DNA of 63,255 nt, filler included, from Reclinomonas americana ATCC 50394 (GCA_048213135.1; 7 parts of 5 records of this genome joined end to end with filler, not necessarily neighbours in it); one strand, 5' to 3'; shown: positions 1,025 to 63,255, numbered from the whole stretch's first letter. Translations and numbers: made by a program. Notes: generated from the sequence alone by a model not told the origin.

Positions 1025-4000
1025 GGGAAGATGAGAAAGAATGAGTATGAGAGAGAGAGAGCGCAGAGAATTCTGTCGAGAGGATAACATGAGATGAACT
1101 CACTGCTTACTCACATTATCTTTGCCTTCACAGTGCTTGTCGTGTGCGTGCATGCGAGTTGCTGCTGCTGCTGGTGGAGCGCAACACCAAGGCATTTGTC
1201 GAGCGCAATGCCGAGGTGTTGACAGATGCCTTGCGCAAGGGCATTCAGGACTCGCAGGCGGAGGCCAGGCGTGCGGCGCGCTTCGCGTTCTGGGCGTTCC
1301 ACAATCACTGTCCGTCACAGGCACAAAAGTTACGTGTTCCGCTCCTCGATCCGCCGTCGATGTGCACTGACCTCTCTTTTGTCGTCGACAGGCTGATGTC
1401 GACGTTTGACAGCAGCACTCAGCGCGTGCTTATGGAGGACAAGGAGGCGTACGCAGAGTCGGCGGCTGCTTCCGCCGCTGGGCACGACTCATCGGTGTCA
1501 CCGGCTGGGAAGCAGACGAGTGCGCGGAAACCAGCAGGTTGGTGGATTGGGGAGAGAGATGGGAGATGGGAGGGAAGAGGAAGGGAAGGGACGGAGAGGG
1601 AAGGGAAGAGAAGGGAGAGAAAAGGAGAAAGGGAAGAATGGGGAGGGAAGGGCAGGGAGGGAGGAGAGGGATAGGGAGGGAGGAGAGGGATAGGGAGATG
1701 GGGGGAAAGGTAGGGAGAGAGAGAAAAGGAGGGATGAGAGAGATAAGGAAAGAAGAGAAAGGGAAGGGAAGGGAAGGGAAGACAAGTGCGAAGAATGAAA
1801 GGGGAAGGGACAGAGGAGAGGGATAGGGAGAGAGAGGGAATGGAGAAGAATAGAGAATGGAGAAGAATAGAGAGGGAGAGAGAAAGAAATTAAGAAAGAG
1901 ATAGAGAAGGAACAGAGATTAGAGGGATAGGGAGAGAGAGAGGGAATGGAGATGAATAGAGGAACAGAGAAAGGGAGATGAAGGAAGGAAGGCAGAAAGA
2001 ACGAATGAGAGAAAGAAAGAAAGAGAGAATTGATGTTGATCAGTGTCCCCTCTTCTCATGCTTCTCTCCCTTGCAGCCATTGCCCAACCGCCGAGAAGAA
2101 AACCGGCGACACCCAACAGCGCGGAGGGTTCTGTGACTGTGCCTGTGCCAGATGTGGGACCGAGCGGCTCACGCTCGTCCACCACGCGCACGCGTCCGAA
2201 TGAGGAAGCCGGTGAATTCCGTGCGCCTCTTGCGGAAGGTCAGTCGAATTTGTGTGCCATTTGGTGAGAGCAGTTCGTCGTCGCTCATTCCTTGGGTGGA
2301 ACTTGTGCAGGTGCGCGTCATCGTTCGTCGAGCGCCTTTATCACGCCGAAGCAAGAGCGCTCTGGTATGGCTTCGGCGGCAGCACCCGCTGCTGCTGCTG
2401 CTGCAGCTGCGGGTCCAGCAGGTGCGCCGGCGAACAAGCCTGAGCGTTGCGTTGGATAGGGAAGGGAGGCGAAGGGAGGGAGGGGAGAGTGACGGGAAGG
2501 AGAGGAGGGGGGAGAAGAGAGAGGAAAGGGTGGACAAAGATAGTGGAATGTTGACGAAAGACGGAGAGAGAGGACGGGTGGCGAAGAAATGGGAGGGAGG
2601 AAAGGATGACATGTGCCAGATTGGGAGAGGAATTGGGAAGAAGTGAGACTCAGTGACACAGTGAGCGAGAGAGCGAAACTGGAGCAGACAGGGAGGAGGA
2701 GAGCAGATTCATTCTCTTCCCGCTCCGTTTCTCTCTGCCTATGCATGCCTCTCACTTCTTTTTCCTTGCTTGTCTTCTTCTTTTCCTCCTTCCATCCTCT
2801 CGTCTCCTCTCGTCTCCTCTCGTCTCCTATCTTTCCTCCTTCCATATTCCCTCTCCTCTCTTTCCTCCTTCCATGTCCCCTCTCCTCTCGTCTCCTGTCT
2901 TCTCCTCTCCCTCTCCCTCTCGCTCCCTCTCCTTCTCACCTCTCCTTCTCCCCCCTTCAGTCGACCGAGTCATGTCACCCACTCGACCGCGCGGCAACTC
3001 CGCCATGGCCGCCCTGGGCCAGTCGCAGTCATCGACGCCGACCTCGCGTCGCAGTGATTCCATCGCCTCCTCTTCGTCGGCCCTCTCCACGCCGTCTTCT
3101 ACGGGACGATATGAGGAGTTGTCGGCCGAGCTGCAGAATGTGTTGAATCAGTTGCGCGCCCCGCACGTGGTTTCGTTTTCATTCACCACCTCCTCCCTTA
3201 CACACTGTCACGCACGGCAGTCGCAACGGACGCAAGCAACCGAATCGCAGATCGATGGGATTCGGCGCACGACGAGTGGAGGTGGAGAATGGTGGTACTG
3301 GTGGCGGTGGTGCCGCTGCCGCTGCGAATGGCGACAGCGATGCTGCTGGCGCCGACGTGACTGCGCCCTCCCTCATGCACCGTCAAGCGATGAGCTCACC
3401 GGCAGCCGGCAGTGGCGGCAACAGCAGTGGTGTGCCGCCGCGCTCGTCCAGCAGCACTCGGCCGTCGCTGGGCGGCGCACCGTCGCGAACCATGGCCTCG
3501 TCGGGCGTGGCTGCGTCGGCTGGCGCAGCGGCGGCTGCAGTGGGCGCGGTGGACGACTACGAAGACGACGCGGAAGCCGGACGCTTCCCGTACGACTCGG
3601 TGGATCGCGAGAGCGACAGCGGAGCGGGTGACGATGGGGACGACGATGGGTTTGCCGACGAGAGTCCGCGTGCCATCTCCACGCAGTACGGCGCCAAGCG
3701 CATACCGCAGCGACCGAGAGCCGGTGAGTGGAAGGGGTGGCGGTAGTGGTGGAGATGAAATGACGACTCACGACAGAGAGATTGATTTTATTGGCAGACC
3801 CGACCACTGCGCTGCAGAATGTCACGAACTTGCCGTCGCACGTGGCACCGACTGGCGCTCGCCGCATTCGCGTGTCGGACGCCGCCAGTGGACCACCACC
3901 TGTGTCGCAGCCGCCATTGATCCCCGCGTTCCAGCGTCCAATTGTGGACGACGACGTGTCGTCTGATTCGCGGTTGTCGGCCGTGTCGCCGACGAGGTCG

Positions 4001-7000
4001 CGCAAGTCGTCAGTGGCGGTGCGTGATGGAGACTTTTCTCGCTTGATTATCTCTTGTCCTCATCGCCGTCACTCGCAGTCGCAGGAACCGCCGTCGGCCA
4101 AGAGCGGCATGTCGCCAACAAGTCCTCGACCGCGCGCGGATTCGCATTCGTCGTCGGGGTCGCCCAAGACACCCGACATTCTCGGCGACCTCAGCTCCAT
4201 TCTCGCCAGTGGCTCCGACAATGACTGGCAGATTCGCATTCAGTCGTTCCGTGATATTCAGAGGTGCGGGGTTGGGGGGTGAAGGGGGGTGCTTGCTTGC
4301 TGTGGTTGTTTCCAGTTTTTATCTTGTTGATGGTGTTGGGTGTGTGCTTTTCCTCTTGCTCCTTGTTGGATTGCTTTTCCTTTTCTCTTGCCATTCTTGT
4401 TTGTTGTCGATTCCGTGCTGTGATGGTATTGTGAGGTGCTTCCTCTGCTTCTTGTTGTGATGCTTGTCTTTTTCCTCGTCACTTTGTTATTGTTTCTGCT
4501 GTTCTCTGTTGATGCTTTGTGATTGTGTTTCATCTTCTGTTTTGTAATGTTGCTGCCTGCTGCTTTGTTGCCGATTCCACGCTGCTGATGCTATCGAATG
4601 CGCTTTTCCTTCTGCCTCTTGTTGTGTTGCTGTTCTTTCCCCCTTTCACGCTGTTGCTAATCTTCTCCCTATATTTGCTCGCTCGCAGAGTGTCAAAGTC
4701 AGGTCGCTCGGGCGAAATCGCCAAGCACTTTGACAGCGTGTTGCACTTGCTGATGGAGAGATTGTCGGATCCGCATTTCAAGGTACTTGTCGAGTCCCCA
4801 CTGTCGTCTGCATGCTCTGCAGCTCTTCTCACTTCTACCATGCAGGTGGTCATTGCGGCACTGGAGGCACTGATTGATTTGGTGCCGGCGTATCGCACCA
4901 ATATGGAGAATTTGTTGGAGAGATTGTTGCCGCGCGGTTCGTTGTTGTGGTTCATCCCCTGCGATTAAGATGGTGGCTGACTGAAGTCTGTGTGTGTGTG
5001 TGTGATCGTGCAGTGATTCTTAATCTGTCGCACGCCAAGCAGCAGGTCAAGGAGTTGTCGTCGCAGGTGTTGGAAGTGATTGTGGCGAATTTTGCCAGTG
5101 AGGCGTTGCTTCCTGTGCTGTCCAAGGTGGGGAAATGGGAGGGGTGGATAAAGGGGGAGGGGGTTGAAAGGGGGAAAGGGTGGACGAAGGGGAAGGGTGA
5201 GAGGAGAAGAGAGGAACGAAAGAGGGGAGGGGCGAGAGGGGAAGATAGGAAGGAAAGAGGGGAAGGGTGAGAGGGGAAGAGAAGACGGAAAGAGGGGAAA
5301 AGAGGAAGGGTGGATAAAGGTGAAGGCTAAAGGGAAAGGGGGAGGGTGAGGGGGAAGAGAAGAAGGAAAGAGGGGAAAAAGGAAGGGTGGATACAGGGGA
5401 AGGCTAAAGGGAAAGGTGGGAGGGTGAGGGGGAAGAGAAGAAGGAAAGAGGGGAAAAAGGAAGGGTGGATAAAGGGGAAGGTTAAAGAGAAAGTGGGAAG
5501 GGTGAGGGGGAAGAGAAGAAGGAAAGAGGGAAGAGAGGAAGGAAAGAGGAAGGGTGGATAAAGGGGAAGGCTAAAGGGAAAGGGCGAAGAGTAAGAGGGG
5601 AAGAGGGGAAGAGAGGAAGGAAAGAGGGGAGGGGTGAGAAGGGAAATTGAAAGAGAATAGAGGATCGGTGAATTTGGAATGGTGAGAAGGGTGTTGAGAA
5701 GGGCGTTGAACAGAAAAGAGCTTTTACAAGGAGAGGTGCACGAGAAGAAGTGTTGGAGAAAGGAACTGGAGGTGGGATGGTGAATCGGCAGTAGTGAACT
5801 GTGCTTGTGGTTGGAAGTGCAGAGGGGAGCAATAGATGGAGAGCAGGTGGGATCGGACGATGAAGTGAGTGAATGTGGATGTGAAGGAGTAACTGATGGC
5901 GGGGAGCGTTTGCTGCTTGTGATTTGATACCATTACGCTCTTGGTGCTCATACCCTGATCCCAGGTCCTTGACAATCGCAATCCCAAGATCCGACTCGGC
6001 GCAATGGAATACTTGATGCACATCATCGGCCAGTCGCACGCGTACTTTTCGGCGGCATCACGTTTTGTGTCTTGCGCAGTTTCTTTCCCCTCCTCTCTGA
6101 CATCTCACTCCCCTTCGTTTTGCAGAAATGCGACTGTTCCTCAACCGACTGGTTGGGTTCACCGCCAACAAGAATGCCGATTTGCGCAAGGCCGCTGTGG
6201 CCACCACTGTTACTCTGTACAATGTTAACAAGGACGTATTCTTGTCGCAACTGGCGGTGCGTCGTGATTGTCATCATTTCCCACTGCTCGCTATTTGGTG
6301 ATCCTCATCGCCGCGCGTAGTGTCTGCCCGCTGCCGAGCAAGCGAGTCTGCGCAAGCTGATGCAACCGTATCTGGGAACGGATCTGGAGCTGGAGGTTCG
6401 CGCGCACTCTCGTCAGAAGCCGCCATCGGCGGCATCAAATCACTCCGCCTCTGGTTCCTCGGTGTCGAGTTCGTCGGCTGGCTCTGTACACGATGTTATT
6501 GTGCATCCGTATGGGGATCAAGACATGCCGCTGTCGTATCACGGCAGTGGGGCGTCCTCGGGCATGCCACGGTACACTGTGGATCTTGTGAGGTGCTTTG
6601 TTGGACACCAGTTCCTCACTCTTGTGTACTGCGCAGATCGTTGTCGCAGTCGCGACCAACTGCACCGTCGGCCGCGGCAGCAGCATCAGCGGCTCCGGCG
6701 ATTCCCATGACTGCGTCGTCACCGGTGGTGCCGTCCTCGCGGGCGCTTCCGCTCTCGTCCAGGAGTGCGGGGTCGTCGGCATCGGAGAGCAGTGTGATTC
6801 CGGATCCTGTTTTGTATCAGCAGAGGCAGGGAGGTGTGTGAAGGGGCAAAGAGGGAAAGGGGGCTTCGGGGGAAAGGGGGCTAGGAGTGAAATGGGGCTA
6901 CGAGGAAAAGGGGGCTACGAGGGAAAGGGGGCTACGAGGGGAAGGGGGCTAGGAGGAAAGGGGGTTACGAGGGAAAGGGGGCTACGAGGGAAAGGGGGCA

Positions 7001-10000
7001 AAGAGGGAAAGGGGGCGAAGAGGGAAAGGGAGCGAAGAGGGAAAGGAGGTTGGGAGGGAAAGGGGGCTAGGAGGGAAAGGGGGCTAGGAGGGAAAGGGGG
7101 CTAAGAGGGAAAGGGGGCTACTACAGAAAGGGGGCTACGAGGGAAAGGGGGCTAAGAGGGTGTTCGATTGCTGACTTTTCTGCGCCTTGTAGGACAAGCA
7201 CCGCTGGCGACCAACTAGTTGCGTCTGATGTCAGCTTTTCCATCACAGAAGCAATCCCCCTCATCATGTGTGCGTCCAGCGAACCTAGTCGACATGCCAA
7301 TGGCGCGTCGTCATATTCGTCGTCGTCGTCGTCGTCGTACGGGATTCCCGGCACTCCGGGTGTCAGCCACCCTGTATCAGCAGGGACGCCGATGCAACCG
7401 GCTGCAAGACCGATTCGGTCGAGCAGGTTTGTGTGCAGAAGCACGGCTGCCAATGATGATTGTAAGCTGATTTTGTTTGTCACAGTCCTGCTCGTGCGAA
7501 TATCGAGAGCCTGCTGGCGGGAAGTCCAAGCACGGCTGCTCGTACGGTGCGTTCTGCTGGGGGTTCGCCGATTTCCTGTGTCGCTGGATAATGACCATTT
7601 TTCCTTCCTACAATGCAGCAATCAAGTACCGCAACTGCCCCTGCCCCGGCTGCGTCTGCTCCGCGCTCGTCGACTGCCACGTCGTTGGCAACCAAGTTTG
7701 CATCACCAATGCGAGCAGGTGTGTGGGGAGGGGAAAGGGAAAGGGAGGAGCGAGGGAGAGGGAGGGAGGGAGGAGGGGGGGAAAGAAGGAGGCGGTTCTG
7801 TGAGACTTCGACAAGAAGTGTTGGTGAATGTAGATGCGAAGGGTTGGTGAGACAAGTAAGAGCAGGAGGGAGAGTAAGACTGTGAGGTTGGAAAGGAGAG
7901 CAGAAGGCAGTGAGTGTCGAATGGATTAATAATGGGGACAGCGAGTGCGACTGAGAGAATGAATTTTAGAGAGGCGGAATGGAGGATGTTGACTAAGAGT
8001 GGAGAATGTTGAGGGTGTTAGTATTGCGGGTTGGGGATGGAGTGTGAGAGCGATAGTGAGAGAGAAAGGAAAGAGAAAGTGCAGGAAAGGAAAGAGAAAG
8101 AGAAAGAGAGAAAGGAAAGAGAAGAGAAGAGAGAAGGAAAGAGAAAGAGAAAGAGAGAGAGAGAGAAAGGAAAGAGAAAGTGAGGAAGATCACATGCAGA
8201 GGGAGCGGAGAATATTGCGGGTTGGGAATGGAGTGTGAGAGCGATAGTGAGAGAGAAAAGAAAGAGAGAGGTAGGAGAGAGAAAGAGAGAAAGGAAAGAG
8301 AAAGAGATAAAGGAAAGTGAAAGTGAGAAAGTGAGAAAGATCACATGCAGAGAGAGCGGGAGTGTTGGGGTTGGGGATGGAGTGAGAGCGATAGTGAGAG
8401 AGAAAGGAAAGAGAAAGTGAAAGAGAGAAAGGAAAGAGAAAGAGAAAGTGAGAAAGATCACGTGCAGAGAGAGCGGAGAATATTGCGGGTTGGGGATGGA
8501 GAGTGAGAGAGAAAGGAAAAAGAGAGAAAGGAAAGAGAAAGTGAAAGAGAGAGAAAGGAAACAGAAAGAAAAAGTGAGAATGATCACGTGCAGAGAGCGC
8601 GGAGAATATTACGGGTTGGGGATCGAGTTTGAGAGCGACAGCGAGAATGAGTAAATGAGAATTGCGGCGCAGAAAGTACAGCCTGAGCCGGAGAGTTGAA
8701 TGTAGAGCAAGAGCGAGAGAGCTATAATGTGCGTATGAGAGTGTTAAAATTGAAAGGGAGAGTGAGCTCGGAGTTTAAAAGTGCAGAGAAGTGTGTGTGT
8801 GTGGGTGTGCGAGCGGGCAGTGAGGAAAAGCAAGTCTTTTTATGAGAGTGGGCCTCTTATGTGCACGTGACATCTTGTTGCTGATGTGGCTTCTTACATT
8901 GTTGCGATGCAGGTCCGCCCCGTCACACGACAGAAGAAGGCAGCGATCCGCACGAGGAGGAGACGGAGGTGTCGTGGGAGATTGAGTTCCCCACTCTCAT
9001 CTCGGATGCGCATTCGACCGGTGAGTTGATGTGGTGATTTCTGTGGATATTCGCTGTCATCGACACGATCCATTGTTGTGTGCACTTGAATCTTTTCTCG
9101 GTCTCCAGTGTGAGACTTGCGTGTGACCGCTGTGCATTGCCTCTCTTTTCCACAGCAGCGAGACTTGTCGTCTTATTGAGGTCACTGTTTTCCATCTCAT
9201 CTCGTCTTGAGAAATCATCACATAGGTTTCTTCTCATGGTTTCTGCGTGAGACTCGCGTGTGTTTCCTCGATGTGTAGCGTCTCTTTTTAAGAGCGAGGT
9301 TGTACTGCTGATTGTGTGGGAGTTTCAACGTGTTGAGGTCACTATGTTCCGTGTCGGTGGTTCCGTCGCACAATGCTTCTTCTCCCGGTCTTCTGCGACA
9401 CTCGCGTGCGTTTCCTCGGTGTATTGCGTCTCTTTTGAATTGTGAGAGTTGTCCTGTTGAGTTTCTGTGGTCACTGTAATTCCATCCTATCTGTTTTCGG
9501 GTTTCGTTGCACGTTGTTTCTTCTCACGGTCTTCTGCGTGAGACTCGCGTGTGTTTCCTCGGCGCATTGCCTCTCTTTTTGAATTGTGAGAGTTGTCCTG
9601 TTGAGTTGAGGTCACTGTGATTCCATCCTATCTCTTTTGGTTTTCGTCGCACATGCCTCGCGTTTGGTGCATTGCCTCTATTTCACAAGAGCAAGACTTG
9701 TCGTTCTGTCTGCACTTCATCATTGTGCATGTCCTCCTTCATGTGCTCATCAAATTCCGTGCCACAGGCGCTCGACGAACGACGGCGTTGCGCGGTCTCG
9801 TCCGCACGTGCTCCGAGGTGCACGCGAGCAGTGTGTGGAGCACGTACTTTTCGCAAGTACTGCTGGTGCTGCTGGAGTGCCTGGAGGATGCGGATGTTGC
9901 GTCGGGGAGGAGCTGTCCAGCCTCCCCTTTCCTGCGACTGACGCATTGTGTGCCGTGCAGGAAACCAATCGCGAATTGAGTCTGGTGGCCGTCAATCACT

Positions 10001-10511
10001 TGGTGCAGAATCAGGGGTCATTCTTCCGTGAGTACATTAGCGTGGTGCTCACGCGCCTGCTGAAGAAGTTCCGCGACCCTTCGCGTGCGGTGAGTGCGGG
10101 GACGGCAGTGACTACATGCGCCTCATTGCAAGCTGAGAACTCCTTTCGCTTTCACGCAGGTTGTGCGTGCCGCGGAGGTGTGCGTGAATCAATTCGTGTC
10201 GGTGATTGATCCGCGGTGGTCGCTGGAGGTGCTGGCGTCGTCGGTCATGTCGGAGGATGGGCCGGTGTTGCATGGTTCCATTTTGATGATTCACAAGTTG
10301 ATCAAGGGGATGACCAGTGATCAGTTGATGAATGTGCTGCCGACGGTGTTGCCGGGGTTGTTTGAGGTGGGTGGGGGTGTGTGAGGGGAAGGGGGTGAGA
10401 GGGAAAAGGGAGATAAGAGGGGAAGGATATGAGAGCGAAGGAAGGAGAGGAATGGGGGTGTTCGCGGGAAACGATGGTATTCATGAAATTTTGCACTTGA
10501 CATGATCGCAG

Positions 10512-10562
<51 letters not shown>

Positions 10563-11038
10563 ACGATGTATGTATGTTTGTCTGTTATTCGTTCTGTTAA
10601 ATTTCCAACTGAGAGCGAGGTTGGGAGAGAGAATGTGTGTGCGCATGCGTGTGTGTGTGTGTGTGTGCTTGTAGGTGTGTCTGAATGAGAGCCCGTCTGT
10701 TAGCGAAGGGTTTGGAGTTTACAATGCAAATTGTGTCCAAGATTCATCGCACTCTGCATGTCCATCTTCAAATGTGTATTTGTTTGTGAAAGAGGGAGAG
10801 AGAGACTGAGCCAGAGAAAGAGAGAGGGGGAGATAGAGTGAGTGTGGATTTCGGAATTTGTGAGGCAAGGTTTGTCAAGCATCGCTTGTGCTATGCACGA
10901 ACGCTATGTTTTGTGTGTCACTCTCTCTTTCTCTCTTGTGTCTTTTCGTGTGTGTATGAGTGTGTGTGCGTGCGTGATCGGATTGTTTGTTCTGATACGT
11001 GAGCAAGGTCGAGAATGGGTGCATGAGAGAGCGAGATT

Positions 11039-11079
<41 letters not shown>

Positions 11080-11099
11080 GTGAGACAATGAGAGGGAGG

Positions 11100-11131
<32 letters not shown>

Positions 11132-11479
11132 CGCTGGGGAGAGAAATGCACCCTTCGACTCCAACGTGCATTGTGCTTTCTCTGTTTGTATTGTGCACTT
11201 GAAAGCATGCGTGAACTTGTCTCCAATCCTGGCTCCATATCTCACACATTCTTCCACCAGGGCTTTCGCAACACCAACCCCGACATTCGCAAGGCGGTGG
11301 TCTTCTGCCTGGTGGACATGTACTTGACGATCGGCGAACCGCTGATGCCGTATCTGGGCGAACTGAACTCGAGCCAGCTGAAACTTGTGCAGATTTACAT
11401 CAGCCGGCACGTCAACCCGCGTGCGTCCGTCGGCAATGCGGCCGCCGCAACAGCTGTCGAATCGGGTCAGCCGTTGTGA
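337..11479 (+). CDS. CLASP: CLASP (CLIP-associating protein) family TOG/HEAT-repeat microtubule regulator, ~26 exons, 5' partial
   Basis: Spliced reading gives TOG2-like 'EWNDRVEALRKFQ..LGDLRSAVVREAC..KLTFVTIQVIADSG..GIQDSQAEARRAAR', a Ser/Pro-rich linker, TOG3-like 'DWQIRIQSF..ERLSDPHFKV' and C-terminal 'GFRNTNPDIRKAVVFCLVDMY..LNSSQLKLVQIYI' (stop 11479). Approx exons: 337-525, 590-837, 1134-1328, 1392-1537, 2077-2238, 2311-2445, 2961-3150, 3221-3723, 3798-4018, 4079-4263, 4689-4782, 4846-4935, 5014-5126, 5965-6061, 6126-6256, 6321-6571, 6637-6833, 7193-7217, 7280-7425, 7486-7546, 7619-7718, 8914-9020, 9768-9895, 9961-10089, 10160-10366, 11261-11479. Confidence 0.9.
6845..7160. repeat. Intronic ~17-bp G-rich minisatellite (gagggaaagggggctac-like)
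   Basis: Many tandem 'gggaaagggggcta' units inside CLASP intron 6834-7192. Confidence 0.85.
8015..8650. repeat. Intronic purine-rich tandem repeat, ~120-190 bp units
   Basis: Recurrent 'gatcacRtgcagaga..gaatattgcgggttggggatggagtg(tg)agagcgatagtgagagagaaa', 4-5 copies. Confidence 0.8.
9105..9710. repeat. Intronic degenerate ~140-bp tandem repeat
   Basis: 'gtgagactcgcgtgtgtttcctcg..ctctttt..gaggtcact..ttcc' recurs near 9110, 9248, 9400 and 9540. Confidence 0.75.
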
Positions 11480-11660
11480 GAGCGTGAAGAAGAAAAAGAA
11501 AAGGAGGGAGGGAGATAGGGAAAAGGAAGAGTTGAGCGTATGTTTGTGTGGAAAAAGACAAAAAGAGGAAAGAAGCAGCAGCAAGAAAAAGAAAATGAAT
11601 CGCCAAAGTCAGCATACAGCTTGCAGCGGACAACGAAGTTCCATTTTTATCATTTGAGAC

Positions 11661-14600
11661 ATGAGCGAAGGAAGTGGCTCTGCACCACCGGCGCCACCGC
11701 CACCGCCTCCTCCACCAGCACCGACAGCAGCAGCAGCATCGTCACAGGCGGCATCGACAGCTGGACGACTGGTCATTCAGGTGACCATGTTGGAGGAGCA
11801 GCGGAAGAGGTAAAGAGGGATATTGAAGAGGGTGGGAGGGAGATGAAGAGAGGAAGGGGGGGGGGGGGGAGGGGGAGGGGAGGAGGGAGGAGGAGGAGGA
11901 GGAGGGAGGGTAGGGTAGGGGAGGGGAGGGGAGGGAGGAGAGAGAGAGAGAGAGCGCACTTCCGGAGAACATTAGTACGCATGCGTGTTTGCGTGCGTGT
12001 GTGAGTGTGTGTGCATGTGTGTGTGTGTGTGTATGCGTGGGAGAGAGAGGGATTCGAATATATATGTGTGTGCGTTGAAGTGCTTTTCCACATGAGGGTT
12101 TCGTTTGCATTTTGTGAGATGAGTGCGATGAGAGAGTGAAGAAGAGGGAAGCGCAGTGCACCCTCGTTGACATCCTCGAATGCAGCTTGCGCAAGACCGA
12201 AACGCGAGTCAAGACACGCGGCGACATGGGTGTTGCGTTGCATGCACGGTGGCATTGTGTGTCTTCTGCTCTCTCACGATGATGCCTCTCTGCAGCAACT
12301 GTCGGCCGACGACGAGGACGACGTAAATCGGAGGTGAGGGCCACGTTCACGTCGTCCTCTCCCTCCCTCTTTCTCACACCCTCTCGATTGCAGAATTGTG
12401 TCACCACGGACGCTGGCGGCGCGCGGCGTCCCCCAGTCACTGTGGATCTCCAAGAGTCGCGATGGAGCGTCGTGGCACGTCAGCGGGTGCCCGAGCCAGG
12501 AGTTTGTGACCCCTGAAGCGGTGGCTCGTGTGCGGGAACAGTTGGAGGCCACCGGCTTGCCAGTTTCGTGGGGCACACTCTCTGTCGCTGTGCTCCTCTC
12601 TGTCGCTTTGTTCCACTCTGTCGCTCTGTTCCACTCTGTCGCTGTGCTCCCCTCTGTCGCTATGCTACTCTCCGTCGCTGTGCTCCTCTCCTGTCACTGT
12701 GCTCCTCTTGTCGCTTTGTTCCACTATCGCTGTGCTCCTTGTGTCGCTGTGCTCCACTCTGTCGCTGTGCTCCTCCTCTATCGCTGTGCTCCTCCTCTAT
12801 CGCTGTGCTCCACTCTGTCGCTGTGCTCCTCTCCTGTCACTGTGCTCCTCTCCTGTCACTGTGCTCCCTCTCTGTCGCTGTGCTCCCTCTCTGTCGCTGT
12901 GATCCCTCTCTGCCGCTGTGCTCCCTCTCTGTCGCTGTGCTCCCTCTCTCTCGCTGCGCTCCCTCTCTGTCGCTGTGCTCCCTCTCTGTCGCTGTGCTCC
13001 GTCGCTGTGCTCTTCCTCTTGTCGCTCTGCTCCTCTCCTGTCGCTGTGCTCCTTCCTGTCGCTGTGCTCCTTCCTGTCGCTGTGCTCCTCTCCTGTCGCT
13101 GTGCTCCTCTTGTCGCTGTGCTCCTCTCNNNNNNNNNNNNNNNNNNNNNNNNNNNNNNNNNNNNNNNNNNNNNNNNNNNNNNNNNNNNNNNNNNNNNNNN
13201 NNNNNNNNNNNNNNNNNNNNNNNNNNNNNNNNNNNNNNNNNNNNNNNNNNNNNNNNNNNNNNNNNNNNNNNNNNNNNNNNNNNNNNNNNNNNNNNNNNNN
13301 NNNNNNNNNNNNNNNNNNNNNNNNNNNNNNNNNNNNNNNNNNNNNNNCCGCTGTGCTCCTTCCTGTCGCTGTGCTCCTTCCTGTCGCTGTGCTCCTCTCC
13401 TGTCGCTGTGCTCCTCTTGTCGCTGTGCTCCTCTCTGTCGCTGTGCTCCCTCTCTATCACTGTGCTCCTGTCGTCGCTGTGCTCCTCTCTGTTGCTGTGC
13501 TCCCTCTCTGTCGCTGTGCTCCCTCTCTGTCACTGTGCTCCACTCCTGTCGCTGTGCTTCTCCCTCTTGCCGCTACTCCCTCTCACCCTTCCCTCTCTAC
13601 CTCTCTCCCTTCCCGCCTCTCTCTCCTCATCCTCCCTCGCCTCCCAGGTCACCTGGGTGGCCACTCCGCTAACATACACCCGCTGGCCGGCGCACCGACG
13701 GATTGCTCCACGTCGCTTCGATGAGACCACGGGAAAGTGGGAAAAATGTGAAGAACCGGTGGCTGTGTCGGCGAGCGGCGAGGCACCGCGCGAGCTCCGT
13801 ATTATGCAGTGGAATGTGTGGTTTGACGAGCAGGATCAGGAGCGGCGAATGCGGGGTATATTGGTATGTAATCAGCCGCTTCCACCAAAGACGTGCATCG
13901 CAATGACCTCGCGCTTGCGTGCAGGCTGTGGTGGCTGCCGAGCAGCCGGACATTGTGGCGCTGCAGGAGGTGGTGACGGAGACGATGCGCTTCATCACAT
14001 TGGATCCGTACGTGCGCTCGCATTTTTACCTGAGCGATGGGCCGGCAGGTGGCACGCTTGGCCAGTATGGTGGGTGGCGCGGGAAGAGAGAAGAAGCGTC
14101 AAGTCGCTGACTCGGTTGATTTCACAGGCTCGGTCATCATGTCGCGGTATCCGCTCGACAACTTGTGCCTGTTCGACTTTCCGTCGCGCTTGAATCGCGT
14201 GTTGTTGTGGGGTACCATTCGTGTGGGTGGATCGGCGGCGCCGGCGGATGATGTGGTGGTGGGGACGGTGCATTTGGAGAGTTTGCAGCGGTCGGTGGAG
14301 TATCGGCAGACGCAGGTGGGTGGGGGTGGGGAAGGGGGGCAAAGGGGGAAAGGGGGAAAGGGGTAAAGGGGGATGGGAAGGCAGAAGGGAGAAGGGAGAG
14401 AGGAGGGAGAAGGGAGAAGGGAGGAGAGGGAAGGAAGCGGATGAGAGGGAAGAGAAGGAAGGGAAGGAGAGAGGAAGGAGAAGGAAGGAGAAGGAAGGGG
14501 GAAGGGGGAGGTGAAGGGGAGAGAGATACAGGGAGGAAGTGATGGAGAGGACGGCTCAAGGCGGTAGGAATTCTTCTGCGTGATTCTGCTTCATCCTTTT

Positions 14601-45177: not shown

Positions 45178-46030
45178 CCTCGTCGGTGGCATTGCCAGCA
45201 CCGCCTTCCTCGGCATCTTCTCATGGACGATCCTCTCGATGAACCACGCGATCTTGACGACGCGCGTTCCAACTTGGCCGAGTTGGTGGTGATCTTCCCC
45301 GAAGATCATCAACCTGCTGAAGGACCTGGACGAGGTTGTGCATCCGCGAGCACACGCTCGAACTCGCGGAACTGGTGGTATCTTCGGGTGCTCTCGGGAG
45401 TCATTGTCGAGCGAGACCAAGGGCAACAACCGCCTGCCGGGCATCATGTGACTCTCGGCTACATTGCTGCCATCTCCGACGCCCTCGCACAACACGTGAT
45501 TGCCACTCGGAGAAGGAGGATCACTTGCGTGCCTGGTCACTGGGTCAGATTGGTCGCCACTCGTCGGAGCACTCGAAGGCCGTCACCGACGCCGAAGTGT
45601 TGCCTCGACCCGCAATCGTCGGACGACCTGAAGACCAAGGCCAAGCGCGCACTCAAGTCGGTGGTGCAAAAATGCTTGCACTTGCCGGCGCTGCAACCAC
45701 TGCTCTCGCGCGCCCCCATCAACATCCTCACCCACGTCACTGGCCAGTACGCCAAGGTGCTGCCAGGCGATCGCGACAGCACGACGAGCGTTTGTGTCGG
45801 ACGGTGGTCTGGAGATGCTGCAACGCATATCCGAGCACGCACCCGAGGGCTCTGAGTTGCAGTTTCGTTGCTCTTCTTCACTGCTCTCCCACTCTCTTTG
45901 CTCGTGTTCTCGTCATGATTTCTCGTGTTACAGAAAGAACATTGACACGATCAACGCATGCTATCCCGACGAGATTGTCAAGTACTACTCACCTGGCTTC
46001 TCCAAGAACTTTGACACCGCCACTCGAGTA
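45178..46030 (+). pseudogene. SPAG6: PF16/SPAG6 (axonemal central-pair armadillo protein) pseudogene fragment
   Basis: Pieces in shifting frames: 'KIINLLKDLDEVV', 'HTLELAELVV', 'KGNNRLPGIM', 'TLGYIAA', 'EDHLRAWSLGQIGRHS', 'SDDLKTKAKRALKSVVQKCLHLPALQPLL..APINILTHVTGQYAKVLP', 'INACYPDEIVKYYSPGFS'. One intron remains (45862-45933); multiple frameshifts and short deletions. Confidence 0.85.
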
Positions 46031-46231: not shown

Positions 46232-47167
46232 TCAGTGGCCCGAAGAAGCTGGCGCAGAAGCAAAGTAGCCACCACGCTCGATGTCGTCCAGCAGGTTGGC
46301 CTCCTTGGGGGCCCACCCAAGCAGCTCTCGCGTCTTTTGGGACGAGGTGGGGTTGTCGATCCCCGCAAAGCCGGCAAACCATCCAAAGTGCTCCTTGGCC
46401 TCCTCGCCGGCGGCCTTGCTCACCGCGGGCACATTCAGCTGACGGCCAATCAGTTCGGCAATGTCGCGCAGCGGGACGCCTTCCTCCGCCACTGCATGAT
46501 ACACAGCTCCGGGAACGGCACGCTCCAGTGCCAAAAGATACACTCGCGCCGCATCCAGCCGATGCACGGCCGGCCACCGATTCTGGCCATCACCAATGTA
46601 GGCCGACTGGCCCTTCTGCCGGGCCAGCTGAATCAGCATGGGTACAAAGGCCACGTCACCACCATCGCCCTGGTGCACCGTTGGCGGCAGCCGCACAATG
46701 GACACGTTGGCGCCGCCGAATTCGGCCGCGCAACGCCGTGCCGTTTGCTCCGACACGCGAGGACCCGTGGCCGGCTCCGGCGCCGCCACGTCCTCCGTCG
46801 AGGTCTCACCCGGTGCAAGTCGGCTGAGCACCGACGGTGTGGCCGAGGTGACAATCAGCGGTTGCTGCGGCTTGAGTGCACCAGCCAGAGCCTCAATGGC
46901 GCGGCGGTCAACGTCGCAGCTTTCGGCGTACTTTTCAAAGTTGTGGATGAAACCCGTGTGGATGACGGCATCGGCGGCGGTCACTCCGCTGCGGAGCGAG
47001 TCAAGGTCCTCCAGGGAGCCCAGGTGCACGCTGGCCCCGGCCGCACGCAAGGTGGCGGCGGCGGTGTCAGAGCGCGCCAGACCGAGGACGGAGTGCCCTG
47101 CAGACAGAAGCTCGCGGAGGACTGCACTGCCAACAAAGCCAGTGGCGCCGGTGAGGAAGACCTTCAT
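46232..47167 (-). CDS. Atypical SDR / NAD-dependent epimerase-dehydratase family oxidoreductase, intronless, 311 aa
   Basis: 'MKVFLTGATGFVGSAV..GHSVLGLARSD', 'DAVIHTGF', 'IVRLPPTVH', 'YIGDGQNRWPAVHRLDAAR', 'KTRELLGWAP'. Confidence 0.92.
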   Translation of the reverse strand: MKVFLTGATGFVGSAVLRELLSAGHSVLGLARSDTAAATLRAAGASVHLGSLEDLDSLRSGVTAADAVIHTGFIHNFEKYAESCDVDRRAIEALAGALKPQQPLIVTSATPSVLSRLAPGETSTEDVAAPEPATGPRVSEQTARRCAAEFGGANVSIVRLPPTVHQGDGGDVAFVPMLIQLARQKGQSAYIGDGQNRWPAVHRLDAARVYLLALERAVPGAVYHAVAEEGVPLRDIAELIGRQLNVPAVSKAAGEEAKEHFGWFAGFAGIDNPTSSQKTRELLGWAPKEANLLDDIERGGYFASAPASSGH

Positions 47168-51070: not shown

Positions 51071-51138
51071 ACGAATGGAGAAACCGCTAATGATTGTGGA
51101 TGATGAGAGTGGGTTAGTTGTGAGATAAATTAGTTGAC

Positions 51139-54100: not shown

Positions 54101-57100
54101 CGTTCCGGGATCCACGACTGGGACGGTGGCGACCCGTGCTCCGCCGACAGCGCCGTCGTGTCATCCGTACCACCACGTCGACGCTCGTCATCGCCGCCCA
54201 GAGGCAGCTCATGGTCGTTGCTGTGGCCGTCGTGGCGGTGGTCTGTGATTTACGCAAAAATGAGCGAAGAACCAAACATGTGCGGAAAACTATGGTGTGT
54301 ACGCAACAGCTGGGTGGCGGCGACGGTCGCCGAGGGGGCGATGATTGTGCATGTGCGCCATGCAACGCCCGATCCGTCTCACTGGCCTCCAATCGCTGCT
54401 TTTCGGCCATCTTTCGGGCCACTCCCGGACGAGCCGGCGGTGGCGACGACGACGGCTGCGGCACGTGCGCCGGTCTCTTCTTGCCCTCCATCACCACAAT
54501 GGGTGGCGACGACGATGCTTTTGGTGACGGCGCGGTATCGTTGGTCGCCGGTGGTCGGCGCCATGGTCTCACTGTCGCAGAAGCCGCAACAGGTTGGGGA
54601 GGTGGTGGTGGCGGCGACTGCTGCCGAGGTGGTGGCGCCATTTGTTGCGGGGCGGTGGCACGAGGTGGTGACTGTGGTTGCCGCCGCATATCGGAAGGCC
54701 GCTCGTCATTGGTAGGACGTCGTCGCGGCAAGCTGGACGAACGTTCGACCTGGCGCGTCGGCTGCGATGCCGCGGTAGCGACGGAAGGTTGTGCTCGCGA
54801 CCTCACGGCAGCGGCATCCGGTGACACGGCCGCAGAAGCCACCGCCGCTGCGGCCGCCGCGTGCATCGATGCTACTGGTGATGGCGGCGCGGCGGGGGTG
54901 GTGCGCGATGGTTTTCGGGCTCCCACGGCATTGGCGGCTGGTGCTGGAGTCGTGGTTGTTGTTGTTGTCGATACCTGTGCCGCAGCAGGCGGTGCGCGTT
55001 GCTGCTGTTGCTGCTGCTGCGGAGCTTTCGCTACCGCTGGCGGTGCTGCTGCGGGTGCCTGCGTCTGCACACTGACGCTCACCTTTTGCGGTGACACCAT
55101 GGGAGACGACGGTCGCGACGATCGTGTCGACAGCACGCGGCCACTTGCAGAGGCTGCGCGAGGCCGAGCCCGCACCTGCTCGTGCGTGATGACCACACCA
55201 CCGCCGTCGCCGTTGCCGTCGGGGAAGAAGGCCTGCGGTGAGCCATTGTCGCTGTACCGCGACCCAAAGGGCGCAGCAGGCGGCGGTCCCAACAGCTGCT
55301 GCACATCGCGGTCGATAGAGCGCGGTATGGGTGTGGCTCGTTGAGCATTGTACAGGTGAGCCAAGCCGCGTGTGCCGCCTGTCGAGCTCCACAGTGGCCC
55401 TGCGTGTTGCTGCTGCTGCTGCTCCTCCGCCCACCCATGACTCGCCGCGTGCGTCCGAGAGAACGGATCCGGCGGCAACGGTCCAATACCGGGTGGTGGT
55501 GGTGGCGACGAACGCAGCAGTCGCGGGAACGCCCCGAAAATGTGGTCACTGGAGTCGCGATGGTGGCCAATAAACTCGGGACGCTGAGCAAGCAGCGTCG
55601 CGACCGATTGCGCCGCAGGCACCGATGCCGCGGCCGCCGCCACCGCCATTGCAGAATGCTGAGGAGGAGCATTGCGGACTGGGCTTGGCGGCGAGGCCAG
55701 CGCCGCGCGGCTGTGCTCCTTGAAGGGCGTGGAAGAAAACACGTGAACCTTCTCCGCCACTTGGCGGATCTCGTTAAGGAGGCTGCTGTTGACGCCTTCC
55801 ATCTCCTCCACCGTCTGTGAGCGATGGCAAGCGGGTGGGTGGGTGGGTGAGAGTGAGGTTGAAGCACACGGAGAGTGATTGTCAACGCACTTGGCGCTCA
55901 CTGGCCACTTGCTCGGTGAGTTCGCGGAGTTGCTGATGCAGAGCGTCGTGCTCGGCCTGCAGCTGATCGACGGTGACGATGTCGGATTCCAGGGCCTCGG
56001 CCACATCGTCAGCGCTCGACTCCAAACCCAGCGGCGCGCTTCGGCGATCCTGCTCCTGCATGGCGCTCGCCTTGTCCAGCAGCTGCGTGTAGGTGCTCTG
56101 CAGTCGGCGCAACTCTGCCTCCTCGTTGGCCCGCACGTTCTTCAACCGTTGCAGCTCATTCTACATTACAGTGAGCAGGGGTGACGACATGCGCTCGGCA
56201 CACGGCAATCAAACCTTCATGCTGCGCATGTGCGCAGTCTGCGCCTCTAGCCGCTGGAGATTTTCGCGCAACTCCTGCAGCACCTGCTGCAGCTGCACCT
56301 TCTCCTCGGCGATGAATTGCTGTGCATGGGCATGAGAGTTGAGTGCATACGATCAAAGACATGCACGCGATGGATGGCACCAACCTTGGTCTCCCACTCG
56401 TGACGCTCGCCCTCCAGCTTCCTAATGGCCTCCACCTCGTCGGCAATTGCCTTTTTCAGGTGCGTCTCCATCTTGCTCAGCACTTGCAGGTTGCCGGCGA
56501 CCACGGCGTTCTCCGCCTCGGCTTTTCGAAACGCGCCGGGATCCACGGGAACGCGGCCGTCCACCTTGTGCACGTCGGCATACTGCTCGTACCTACGAAG
56601 AGGAAGGCGGACAGGGTGAGCATGTCGGCTTGCAAGCCAATCACCGCTTGGCGATTGCACAGAACCGTTGTTTCATCTCAAACGCTTTCCGCTGCGCGTC
56701 AATGCGCTCCTGCGTTACGCGTCGCAGCTCGCGCTGCAGCGCGGCCACCACACTATTCTTTTCGTCGTTGATCTGATACAACAGGCGTCAGGGGATGCAA
56801 GGGAAGGGGCGTTGAGGGGAAAGCGACGAGTCGTACTCACGTAGCCCTCAAACGAGCGGACCATGGCATCACCATCATGCGGCCGCACCACTGCAGCTTT
56901 CGCGGTCCCCGCCGCGCCCAGCACCAGCGGCGATGGCGGCAGCGATGCAGAGCGGCTGACAGGTGGAGGCGAGCGCGGCGGCTTGCCGAGAGGCGACGCC
57001 CGTGACTGCGAAGTGGGTGATGCACGACTGCCTGCCGCTGCAGCTGCCAGTGCTGGCGAGGAGACTGACACTGTGGTGTCGATGCTCGGCAGAGTGGCAG

Positions 57101-59443
57101 CCCGCCGCCGCACCGAACTGTTGAGCTGCTCCGCAGAGGAGGACGACAACTGATGCACGTCCACCAGCGCCAGCTGCTGCAGCTCGGTGCGCGGCGGCGA
57201 ATGCAGTGGCGGCTTTGGTGGCGGCGCTGGGGACAGGTCGGTCGACGGCAATTGCGACGGCGACACGGCCTCGAGGGTGGTCAGCAGGGACGCCAGACTG
57301 CCGAGCGGAGGCACCATGGCCGCACTGACTTCAGCGGGCGACTGCGCGCCCGAGAAACCCACAGGCGACACCGAACCGCCGTCGTCGCTTGTCTGCAGCG
57401 ACGGAGAGCGATCCTCGCCACGCCAGTGCGGATTCACCAGCACGGGAGAGCGCCCCGACAACAAATCGTCGGGATCGATCTGCAGCTCATCGCCCGACGC
57501 ATTGTCGCCCTGCTCCACCAAGCTATCGCTGTCCTTGGCCGAGGTCGGCGGCGAATCGAATGGCGTACTGACGGCCTCGCCATTGCCGCGCCACGGCGAG
57601 TCGAGGCCAGTCGGCGTCGCCGCACCCAGCAAGATGCTCGGCCGCTGCTGCGGTCGTGAAGGCGCACTGTGAAAATCCTCGTCATCGAATGGCGTCGATG
57701 GAGTGGCGCTGGCGCGACGCGGCGCAGCTGGACTCGCCGACGCCAATGGCGAGGGCGCTTCGGGTTGCAACTCGGCGATCAGCTTCAGGCATTCTCGTCT
57801 GCCCGCGGGTGTGTGAGAAAGCGAGGGAAGAGTGGGGAGGAGGAAAGGAAGAAACGCAACTGCATCTGTGTCGCCTGCAACGCCTCGGCCAGACGTGCCA
57901 GCTGGCGAATCCACGCTGGACCACGCGCAACGATATCACGGAGATGCACCGCCAGCTGCTCCGCCGGCGATGGCGAACCAGCAGCAGCACGACGACTCTC
58001 AACGAGCTTGCGAACGCGCGTAATGACCGACACATTCTCGTTCATCGATCTCCGCTGTACACACACAAGAGATGAACACAGCAGACTGCGTATATAACAT
58101 AAGACAAAATCGCGCACCCACGACAGCATCGCGGCCAATCCCTCCTGTTCCGGCGGCAACAGCTCGCGCACATCCCTCTGCAGCGCCTGCTCAACGATTC
58201 CCAGCTGCTCCTCACTCAACGCCCGCGACATGTGCTTGACATGCATATCGACCACGCGTTTTCGCAACGCGTCCACCATCTCACTCGACACCGCCGACAC
58301 AGACGCAGACAACTCGTGCTCGTATCTCGATTGTCGTCGCAGCTCGTGGGCGAATTGCGTCGGTGCCAGTGTGTAAAGCAACCAGCTGGCGATCAGCGGT
58401 ACTGTAAACAGTTCGTTGGTGTGTTGTGTGCCTGCGTGTGCAGGAAGAAGGGTGTTGGCGGCGATCACGGTCTCCTCCTCTTGTTGTTGGTGTTGATCGG
58501 TCGGCATTGCCGGCACCGATTGGCGAAGTGTGCGCAGAGGGTATGAGGTGACTACCTGTGAGGGGGGAGATGGAGAGTGTGAGTGTGTGAGAGAGTGTGA
58601 GAAAGAGAGTGTGAGAGTACCAGTGTCTCGTGTGAGGTGTTGTCTTCGCGCACGCTCACTGAGCAGTGCTCCTCGGGGGACGATGGCAATCGTCGAATGA
58701 TCAACTGTGTGAGGCAGTGAGCGATGAGAGAGAGTGGAGAGAGGGAGAGAGGGAGAGACCATTGCGATCGCTCTCGTTGCCAACGATCGATGTTCCCGCC
58801 AGAATTCGAGGTCTACAGAACGGCTTTTGTAGGGCTTCAAACAACAACTTTCAGCTGCATGATGATCCATCCTGAGAGAGTACCAGAAACACGAAGTACA
58901 CGAGAAAAAATCGATACAGTCCACACCGTGTTGTCGATCTCGTAGCTCGAGGTTGGGTGGGTTGTCGACTTCGAGCACGGTGGTGGCGGCCGATGACAGG
59001 CTCCCTGGCGTTTCCGGATCCTGGACGGAAGTCCCTGACACGAGAACCGTGATCTCGACACTACTTTGTGACCCTTCCTTCACAGCTGGCACGTCAAGAT
59101 CTCTCGATCCCCTCAGCATTTGCTTATCACGCAGTCCACGATTTTAACAATACAAGCACCACAAAGGTCTTTACAATAAACAACGGCGAAAGACCAGCGT
59201 CATGGCTGCTTGTGATGGTTCGGTTGTGGTGTGAATAACCTCGCCAGCGGCGAGATCCAGGACGAAAAGGCGCTGCGATGCTCGGCGGCGGCCAGCTCAT
59301 TGCATTGCATGAGCGCGTCGAAGAGGCGATCGACCAGCGATTGTGAAAAGTGTGGTTTCTGTTCCAGGAAACCACCTGCGGAGTATTGCCGCGGCACCGG
59401 GCATTGTTCGTATGTTACATCGTTGGGGTGGAAGATGGCCAGC
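51139..59443 (-). CDS. Very large multi-exon hypothetical coiled-coil / low-complexity protein; 5' partial
   Basis: Most exons can be joined in phase from 59443 ('LAIFHPNDV') through coiled coils at 56770-55750 and 52980-52380 to stop 51139 ('LLAELDDL'); could be more than one gene. Confidence 0.6.
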
Positions 59444-61494: not shown

Positions 61495-61594
61495 NNNNNN
61501 NNNNNNNNNNNNNNNNNNNNNNNNNNNNNNNNNNNNNNTTAATTAATTAANNNNNNNNNNNNNNNNNNNNNNNNNNNNNNNNNNNNNNNNNNNN
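61495..61594. other. Artificial contig-joining spacer
   Basis: TTAATTAATTAA at 61539-61550 within Ns. Confidence 0.97.
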
Positions 61595-63255
61595 TGGTGT
61601 GATGGCCACTTGCATTGACGGATCGTCCGGATCTGTGCATCGCCCAAACAGAAGATGAGCACAGAGCGTTCAAAACTCCGCTGCATTTCTCTCGTCTCGC
61701 GCACCCGGGATAATGTCCTGCACGGTGGCATACTCGAGCTTCTTGGTGATTTCGTGCAGACGCCGATGTGCGACATCCAGTCGATCCCTGTAGGGAGTGA
61801 CCGTGGCCATCAACTCGGCGTGCAGCACCGCGTTGAGAACCCAGCTGCACAGACCCTGTGCGAGACACGAAAGAGTCGGAATAGGGCATGAAGAGATCGA
61901 AAACCCTCGAAGTATTGGTTGGCAAACCTGTGCCGCCTTGGAGATCTTGCCGACAGCATGCGGCGTGAATGCCGGGTCCTCCGTGTATGTCTTGACACGG
62001 CGCAACACTTGCGGCGTCAACTGCGTCTCAAAATCGTACTCCAGCAGCTGCTGTCGAAAGCGCGCCCCCTGCAACGTCTCCTTGGCGGCGTCAACCGTCT
62101 CAGGCCGGCCCAACAATACCATCACCGCTTTCAACACCTACACGTCGACCGGCGGGTTCAGAAAATGTGCATCGATCCGCATTGCTCCCCCCGAACTGCC
62201 ACGCAACATTCTCGACGAGTGGCGGTGCGTGCGCAAAGTAGCGCAATTGATTAATGTCGGAGAGTGCCACACTCGACAGCGACAGCAGCGAGGATTCGAC
62301 CAGCGGCGCCACTCCTTCGTACTCCTTCTCAGCTAACCGCACGGCCTCCAGCGCTTGATCACGCTCCAGCAACAGGCGACTAATGTCACTCCGACGACGC
62401 TGTACCGGGCGCAGTGAACAAGCCAAACGCAGACAAACAAAAGCATTCTCATGCATGCAAATATATGCACACCTTGGTGGAGAGTGGCGTCGTCGGCGGC
62501 ACATCGACATGTAACCTCCGACTGACGCGATCCAGTCCCTCTTGTGCCAGGCGCGCCAGTTGCCGCACCGGATCGAGGCGGTGCGTCATCAATCCAAATT
62601 TCTCCATACTGGAGGCCCAGTGGAACAGGCCAACAGCGGGCGGACACGTGGCCTCCACCGTCTTCCCAACGCACACATGAGGAAAATAAAGGCACACATT
62701 GCACATTTCTCGCCAAAAAAACTCACCTGTAACCGAAACTCGGGACGCTTGGTGTACTCGGCCGCCTGGATGAGCATGGTGGGCGAGATGGTGCCACGAT
62801 TAAAGTAAATAAGCTGTCGCAGACAGCTGGACTCCTTCAGCCACACTCGTGCCGCGCTCAGCGTCGGTGGCTGGCAGAGGAACACCATGATGACTTTGAG
62901 CACGGTCTCCACCTGACGTCGTCATTCGGTGAGTGATTAGGAAGACCATAGGATCACATGCACAACACATACCGGCGACGAAAGGAGCGGCAGAGAGCGC
63001 AGCTTGTGCACATCTTGCATGGAGAGGGCAGAGATGCCGGCCAGGTAGCGGTTGAGAGCGGGACCGCTCTTGCGCAGCGCACCGTCGGCCGCATCGCGGA
63101 TGCGCACAAGACGTCGCTGCAGCGCCGTCAACTCCTCCTCTCCGAGTCGATCCAGCGCCGCCTCGCTGACCTCCGACTCGCGCAGACGCATCTCGTTGAC
63201 ATCGTCGTCGGGAGGCGTGATCCAAATGGTGCCGCGCTGCTGACGCGCGGCCGCC
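61595..63255 (-). CDS. Protein with two tandem dynein heavy-chain stalk/microtubule-binding (MT) domains; partial at both ends
   Basis: Repeat 1: 'PALNRYLAGISALSMQDVHKLRSL..P|VETVLKVIMVFL..RPEF..|..AVGLFHWASSM..LDPVR'. Repeat 2: 'APLVESSLLSLSSVALSDINQLRYFAHAPPLVEN|VLKAVMVLLG..DPAFTPHAVGKISKAAQ|GLCSWV..VTPYR'. Confidence 0.75.

Follow-up and report, generated by a model that had tools for sequence, protein, structure and literature searches.

The window analysed here is a stretch of 63,255 nucleotides from the genome of Reclinomonas americana ATCC 50394 (GCA_048213135.1), composed of seven contigs joined by N spacers, with 55% G+C and numerous N gaps. Besides introns with ordinary 5' splice sites, its genes carry a recurrent set of introns whose donor contains one additional T directly after the GT (GTTGCG, GTTTCG, GTTACG, GTTGAG, and GTTTTG); we refer to these as extra-T donors. 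Judging from coding potential and homology, this donor class is probably real. The introns concerned are probably U2-type GT-AG introns that use the common G-U-(G/A/U)-C-G-U donor of this lineage plus a U after the GU, so that the G and U of positions +5 and +6 fall at +6 and +7. The extra T seems to be present at the start of roughly one in six to ten introns, as estimated on 63 kb. A first-pass annotation of the window had listed 18 such sites and proposed that they form a major donor class read through a U bulged at +3. The recurrent class is borne out by a T-specific enrichment in a hidden Markov model (HMM) gene finder and by junctions pinned by homology, whereas the term "major class" rests on 63 kb. 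For its recognition we tentatively favor a U1 pairing that is shifted as a whole rather than bulged.

Placement and composition of the extra-T donors

All 18 hexamers listed in the first-pass annotation are present where it placed them and on the same strands, and they are spread over five of the seven contigs. By definition, the 18 sites share a T at +3, a G at +6, and a base other than G at +5. Their last exon base was also said not to be G, and this holds: G is found at -1 in none of the 18, compared with 32 of 56 ordinary donors (Fisher p 5e-6). Among the extra-T donors chosen by the HMM, one of 13 has a G at this position (p 0.0015). A occupies -1 in 8/18 sites. As a word, GTTGCG is not over-represented, with 42 occurrences on both strands for 44.0 expected from the trinucleotide content. 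The claim therefore rests on where the words are placed, and the concentration of the extra-T pattern shows at donor positions only. The base following GTTGCG is a T in 10 of the 12 claimed words versus 4 of the 30 unclaimed ones, and T at +7, a position outside the hexamer definition, is found in 15/18 claimed sites. Two of the four unclaimed GTTGCGT words (12232 and 32482) resemble further introns of the class. The only GTTGCGT words without a candidate intron are 21699 (+) and 28736 (+); the former comes after a predicted exon, 40 bases from the end of contig 1, and is a possible further extra-T donor.

The sites had been described as ordinary donors plus one T. The layout and the T-specificity of the added base agree with this description: G at +4 (13/18) mirrors the ordinary +3 (G in 39/56), and the added base is specifically a T. 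The class is, however, narrower than its ordinary counterpart, since C is found at +5 in 16/18 sites versus 13/56 ordinary donors with C at +4.

Introns were predicted with an exon/intron HMM based on a three-periodic third-order coding model that was self-trained starting from exons with Pfam support. Introns had to begin with GT, end with AG, and span at least 45 bases; a mild preference was set at acceptor position -3, no donor matrix was used, and overlapping predictions on opposite strands competed. This version, with its minimum length and strand competition, superseded an early unconstrained pass that gave 238 introns over both strands. Both flanking exons survived for 72 introns, 38 of which have a G at +5. 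GTT-N-H-G donors account for 8/72, against a background of 244 among 7555 GT sites (3.2%), whereas the N-H-G pattern with A, C, or G at +3 accounts for 4/72 against a background of 18.7%. When T at +7 is added, GTT-N-H-G-T is found at 7/72 donors for 0.73 expected (binomial p 9e-6), its counterpart with any base other than T at +3 at none for 2.45 expected, and the ordinary GTNNGT at 22/72 for 6.7 expected. Another 22/72 donors have neither pattern and are probably misplaced for the most part. GTTGCGT words were chosen as exact donors in 5 of 14 cases, compared with 72/7555 for all GT sites. Seven of the eight GTT-N-H-G picks belong to the 36 introns of at most 110 bases.

Exempting the extra-T pattern from a 4-nat penalty for an absent +5G lets it take 13/75 introns, that is, 5.3 per 100 words, versus 0.7–2.9 per 100 words for nine control patterns. 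The extra-T donors at 3170, 20581, 49067, and 57860 are retained despite the penalty. For a fixed acceptor, the 90 bases upstream of the site are free of in-phase GT with G at +5 in 11 of the 17 sites examined.

Junctions and introns

Three junctions in the CLASP gene are pinned by homology. Rival splice models, with exons joined by coordinates, were scored against a profile of 72 CLASP homologues of at least 900 residues, aligned with MAFFT in its faster mode. At 1329, the spliced product gives one colinear match of 90.6 bits versus 71.3 bits in two pieces when the intron is retained. The maximum of the offset scan is at 0, with 81.7 bits at -3 and 86.8 at +3; of the six best tblastn alignments that span the site, four have a 21-residue gap, and the 63-base GT...AG pair is the single one of its kind there. 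The alignment with CLASP TOG2 structures ends at this donor, without resumption beyond it. At 6062, the spliced peptide is colinear with profile positions 874-949 (76 residues on 76 positions, 65.4 bits) and the offset scan again peaks at 0. The acceptor has no other in-phase GT, and a CTGAC-type motif lies 22–29 bases before the AG. At 9896, the upstream exon runs up to profile position 1099, with 1100 as the start of the downstream exon; the junction scores 62.9 bits versus 52.2 for the best +5G alternative (9901/9980), which is 10.7 bits worse. Scores fall at each of the three sites when the junction is displaced by 3, 6, or 9 bases, and the ordinary control junctions 526 and 4937 behave in the same way. 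The control at 526-589 (+) ends in AAG, not YAG, and reaches 212 bits with its maximum at offset 0. Being pinned by the profile, it indicates that AAG acceptors are in real use in the window; intron 3170-3236 (+) likewise ends in AAG.

A SPAG6-like stretch (45299-46030, +), detected through homology, contains the junction at 45862. Residues 468 and 469 of the PDB SPAG6 chain 9ijj_AA are adjacent at the point where the read-through translation carries 24 extra residues, equivalent to 72 bases. The stretch covers the C-terminal half only, misses short segments relative to a 506-residue homologue, and contains a minimum of four changes of reading frame where introns would not fit. It has the appearance of a gene copy that has decayed or was poorly assembled. 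Because the frame changes repeatedly without intron room, we consider the copy decayed and its intron a relic. In the dynein heavy-chain stalk, the exon downstream of the 62207 intron can be aligned with DNAH6 (dynein heavy chain 6), the alignment beginning at its second residue. A +5G alternative would lose this conserved exon start, and no in-phase +5G GT lies within 90 bases. The upstream exon has no match in solved structures or Pfam. Two dynein stalk-like units stand head to tail in 1.6 kb (about 62592-63254 and 61673-62585, -). Both contain a similar motif at a helix start, and their introns lie at different codons; they may represent a tandem duplication of an exon block or mutually exclusive exons. 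The first-pass annotation had taken SPAG6, CLASP, and dynein junctions as fixed by homology. This stands for CLASP, through the profile at the three sites, and for the gap at 45862, with the reservation that the SPAG6-like copy is frame-disrupted; the dynein junction is pinned on one side only. Removal of the intron restores a continuous homologous protein at 1329, 6062, 9896, and 45862, and for the remaining sites no homologues were found.

The other sites, graded in table 1, differ in how tightly reading frame and signals confine them. The intron at 57860 is the HMM's own pick. Reading through it meets a stop, no in-phase +5G alternative exists, and CTCAC lies 19 bases before the AG; no related metagenome loci were confirmed for the long exon beside it. 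At 30522, CTGAC lies 22 bases before the CAG and the only other GT in phase with the acceptor is 51 bases upstream; a rival pair, 30550/30617 with donor GTGCGT, lacks a comparable branch motif. The phase is compatible with the extra-T GT alone both at 49067, where both flanking exons score poorly (7.9 and 9.4), and at 44549, where the first exon is too short for scoring. For 54307, a standard donor in phase 75 bases upstream would cost just 3.8 nats of coding score. Read-through at 32748 hits a stop, with CTGAC 24 bases before the CAG, and longer alternative introns are possible there. Coding evidence is poor on both sides of 20581, and it is weak for 7218 and 19901 as well. The donor at 19901 was chosen only when the pattern was allowed, the donor-blind HMM having used a GT 12 bases upstream. 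At 33839, read-through meets no stop and a GTTCG donor is available in phase 9 bases upstream; at 2446, in a low-complexity region without homology, an in-phase standard donor follows a CAG 24 bases upstream. Between 3151 and 3170 a frame change is required, and either solution is an extra-T donor. Read-through of 32482 meets no stop, and this intron is therefore not forced.

Table 1. Extra-T donors and candidate introns of the window, by position
Position	Strand	Length (bases)	Donor	Context	Evidence and grade
1329-1391	+	63	GTTACGT	CLASP intron	Homology-pinned; well supported
2446-2960	+	515	GTTGCGT	Candidate donor; GA-rich intron	Ambiguous
3151-3250	+		GTTGCGC	Candidate intron	Ambiguous; rival 3170
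3170-3236	+	67	GTTTCGT	Additional candidate; AAG acceptor	Preferred over 3151 by HMM
6062-6125	+	64	GTTTTGT	CLASP intron	Homology-pinned, frame-forced; well supported
7218-7223	+		GTTGCG	Claimed donor behind a putative exon of 25 bases	Neither acceptor nor frame assignable
9896-9960	+	65	GTTGCGT	CLASP intron	Homology-pinned, HMM pick; well supported
12232-12295	+	64	GTTGCGT	Additional intron; CTCAC 23 bases before CAG	Chosen with pattern allowed
12563-12568	+		GTTTCG	Claimed donor; intron enters tandem repeats and N gap	In-phase GTGTG donor 36 bases upstream; no assignable acceptor
19808-19901	-	94	GTTGCGT	Intron	Weak
20581-21608	+	1028	GTTGCGT	Intron	HMM pick, kept under penalty; weak
30522-30589	+	68	GTTTCGT	Intron of STAND NTPase-WD40 gene	HMM pick; well supported
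32482-32547	+	66	GTTGCGT	Additional candidate, in frame	Chosen in early unconstrained HMM pass
32748-32810	+	63	GTTGAGC	Intron	Chosen once pattern allowed; probable
33839-33901	+	63	GTTGCGT	In-frame candidate	Ambiguous
44443-44549	-	107	GTTGCGT	Intron after 10-codon first exon	Possible
45862-45933	+	72	GTTTCGT	Intron relic in SPAG6-like copy	Homology-pinned; well supported
49067-49128	+	62	GTTGCGC	Intron	HMM pick, kept under penalty; probable
54243-54307	-	65	GTTGCGT	Intron	HMM pick; probable
57799-57860	-	62	GTTGCGT	Intron between two long high-scoring exons	Well supported
62138-62207	-	70	GTTGCGT	Dynein heavy-chain stalk intron	HMM pick; well supported

All 19 donor-acceptor pairs examined begin with GT and end with AG. 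Fourteen of the 19 candidate introns measure 62–72 bases, like the ordinary short introns of the window, and 11/19 have a CTNAY motif 10–45 bases before the AG, as ordinary introns also do. The ordinary short introns (GT-N-N-G-T, CTNAY, YAG or AAG, about 61–77 bases) thus share length class, branch and acceptor motifs, and genes with the extra-T introns. They differ from them by the lack of the added T after GT, of the predominant C at +5, and of the exclusion of G at -1. In an alignment of 14 extra-T introns, only GTT, G6, and the final AG are invariant, and the mean column identity is 35%. Introner elements, families of mutually similar introns that have spread recently, would also show a constant 5' word and little variation in length. 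They were rejected: the extra-T introns share no internal sequence and therefore do not form an introner family. U12-type introns resemble the present case as a second, sharply defined donor class next to the main one. This assignment was also rejected, as the GTT(G/T/A)CGT donors and the CTGAC/CTCAC branch motifs lack U12 words.

Pairing with U1 and alternative explanations

According to the reading that we tentatively favor, U1 would pair with extra-T donors in a register displaced by one base. The U1 cytosine whose usual partner is the last base of the exon would face the first G of the intron, and the U1 adenine usually paired to +2 would face the U at +3. Cleavage would stay before the GU, presumably set later by U6, U5, and Prp8, and U6 would also have to accept that its pairing block lies one base farther from the cleavage site. 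Alignment of the extra-T position -1 with the ordinary position -2, as such a shift predicts, is favored by a log-likelihood ratio of 7.7 nats for position -1 alone. Human sites read in a shifted register are rare, a few dozen, and their block is A-A-G-U, whereas it is G-C-G-U here; few Watson-Crick pairs are therefore left. These human sites (Roca and Krainer 2009, as described in an excerpt of PMC4856993) and the extra-T donors have in common the GU-U start, the consensus G and U at +6 and +7, and cleavage at the GU; in the human register every U1 pair is displaced by one position. The absence of G and the frequent A at -1 also fit the human layout. Both shifted and bulged registers of U1 are established in human cells, as stated in the same excerpt.

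Several observations weigh against this shifted pairing, or against the class itself. G is found at -2 in 17/56 ordinary donors (about 30%), so that 0/18 at -1 of the extra-T donors is too few even for a shifted register, and the C at +5 is explained by neither a shifted nor a bulged register. In minimum-energy duplexes with the canonical U1 5' end, the intron's G+1 faces C9, as in a shifted register, in 5/21 sites, C8 in 1/21, and neither in 15/21, all of these duplexes being weak. The 56 donors used as the ordinary set are HMM output and include errors. Favoring +5G by 4 nats gives a +5G donor to 65/74 introns and re-routes most extra-T sites to other GT-AG pairs, and an in-phase +5G GT is available within 90 bases upstream in 6 of the 17 sites examined. 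One of the homology anchors, SPAG6, sits in a decayed copy. Finally, a 60-base coding-boundary test on 6948 GT sites supports 28/601 GTNNGT words, 136/4513 other words, and 5/74 extra-T words (p 0.08); this test is too weak to separate even ordinary donors.

The bulge proposed in the first-pass annotation supposes an otherwise canonical U1 helix with a U bulged at +3 (or +2): the exon side and positions +1 and +2 would pair normally and the G-C-G-U block would follow one step late. It has the merit that the sites read as ordinary donors plus a U, and that the extra base is always U suits a bulge migrating between identical neighbors. In humans, experiments support a register with a bulge at +2/+3 (PMC4856993, in excerpt). 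The human bulge +2/+3 and bulge +3 classes described there likewise have an extra U beside the U at +2, with the downstream pairs displaced by one. They comprise 54–68 and 36–51 of 201,541 human 5' splice sites, or about 0.03% each (PMC4856993, same excerpt), compared with 8/72 to 13/75 (about 10–17%) of predicted introns here. The exon side, however, is not that of a bulged helix. A bulge keeps the exon-side pairs of the canonical helix, so that G should be at least as common at -1 as in the 32/56 ordinary donors, and it is absent from all 18 sites. Nearest-neighbor folding of the 21 sites against the canonical U1 5' end, which may differ from that of this organism, leads to the same result: the bulged helix is the minimum-energy duplex of none of the sites, the one duplex with G+1 opposite C8 included. 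We regard the bulged register as rather unlikely.

The same folding gives the extra-T sites +0.5 to -4.8 kcal/mol, versus -8.1 and -12.5 for two model ordinary sites, with no stable helix in either register. With duplexes this weak and no consistent register, U1 or U6 may be a variant form, or recognition may owe little to U1 pairing. A second U1 (perhaps U6) small nuclear RNA (snRNA) with an extra or changed 5' base could pair without distortion with G-U-U-(N)-C-G-U, two snRNAs then serving two donor classes. Besides the poor energies with the canonical end, the sharp definition of the class at +5 and +7 is what a dedicated partner would produce, and expressed variant U1 genes are present in humans (PMC3561869 and PMC10870369, both in excerpt). 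The support is nevertheless indirect, since an Rfam scan of the window gave zero matches and hence no snRNA gene within it, and ordinary GTGCGT donors mismatch canonical U1 at +4 as well; we regard a dedicated snRNA as doubtful. The junctions might instead be mis-set, either because other nearby GT sites are used or because in-frame stretches are left unspliced, the recurrence being due to chance and selection by eye. The lack of overall enrichment of GTTGCG, the in-phase standard alternatives or open frames at 2446, 12563, 33839, 54307, and 32482, and the re-routing of most sites when +5G is favored would agree with this. A donor-blind HMM nevertheless lands on the pattern about ten times above expectation, and with T at +3 only; the profile maxima fall exactly on three of the sites; and T at +7 and the absent G at -1, which lay outside the first-pass definition, separate claimed from unclaimed words. 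Such an artefact is accordingly rather improbable. We therefore rank the shifted register ahead of the bulge, followed by mis-set junctions and then by the dedicated snRNA variant.

Two further explanations were rejected. For the GTTGCG members, the true donor could be a GC lying in frame three bases farther on, so that the exon would gain one codon and the introns would be of GC-AG type. At 9896 the +3 junction is just 1.4 bits lower in the offset scan (61.7 vs. 63.1), but it loses 3.8 bits at 1329 and 4.3 bits at 6062 and is thus lower at all three pinned CLASP sites. GC donors normally require a near-perfect surrounding consensus, which GTT/GCGT does not offer, and the explanation is inapplicable to GTTTCG, GTTACG, and GTTTTG, which have the same layout; we consider it very improbable. 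Homopolymer overcalls in ordinary GTGCGT donors, or assembly errors, are hardly credible. The assembly is fragmentary with many N gaps and the SPAG6-like copy is frame-disrupted, but random indels would not strike position +3 of about a tenth of the donors while long exons elsewhere stay open. Nor would they remove G at -1 or enrich C at +5.

Gene content of the window and significance of the donor class

A Pfam search of 140 open frames identified CLASP (+, about 270-11500), a gene of the endonuclease/exonuclease/phosphatase family, a STAND NTPase with WD40 repeats, an intronless bacterial-type SDR epimerase, and the dynein stalk. A WD40 frame of 642 codons exemplifies the long open exons of the window. 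Among 405 CLASP relatives found in a search of 1.84 billion representatives, the closest is 58% identical over one exon, which points to a sparsely sampled lineage. The best-named relatives are EukProt transcriptomes of euglenozoans and glaucophytes, with identities of 43–50% for CLASP and 42% for SPAG6. Word-indexed protein searches gave one match for a CLASP exon, two for the SPAG6 stretch, and none for the NACHT exons. The SDR/NAD-dependent epimerase (46235-47167, -, 311 codons) is intronless and flanked on the same contig by intron-rich eukaryotic genes. Its nearest Atlas clusters are 77–100% bacterial, and it may have been horizontally acquired.

The first long intron of the endonuclease/exonuclease/phosphatase-family gene contains a long array of short CT/GT-rich tandem repeats beside an N gap (12580-13700, +); long introns elsewhere are rich in GA/TC and TG/CA microsatellites. 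Two GTTGCG words on opposite strands of two contigs, 36752 (+) and 40887 (-), are identical over the 12 bases before the word and the 14 bases from it. The position of one beside an N gap and of the other close to the end of a contig points to a repeat at which the assembly broke.

A full-text literature search found no report of a lineage with common extra-U or shifted donors, the cross-species comparisons in PMC2719486 and PMC3360564 being outside its reach. What is new here is thus probably the common use of the extra-T register, shifted and bulged registers being known as rare human classes. A bolder possibility, which we regard as doubtful, is that the major spliceosome of this lineage runs two parallel 5' splice-site registers served by distinct U1 (perhaps U6) variants, the distance from the cleavage site to the paired block being heritable gene by gene.

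If the extra-T class is confirmed, about one donor in six to ten would be invisible to gene finders that rely on fixed-register matrices; introns would be shifted or missed and the predicted proteins corrupted. R. americana would then offer a natural system with routine use of a register that in humans is confined to about 0.03% of sites (PMC4856993, in excerpt). How cleavage stays at the GU, how far U6 tolerates the displacement, and whether snRNAs have co-evolved with their donors would become testable, with the C at +5 and the absent G at -1 as concrete handles for tests of the register.

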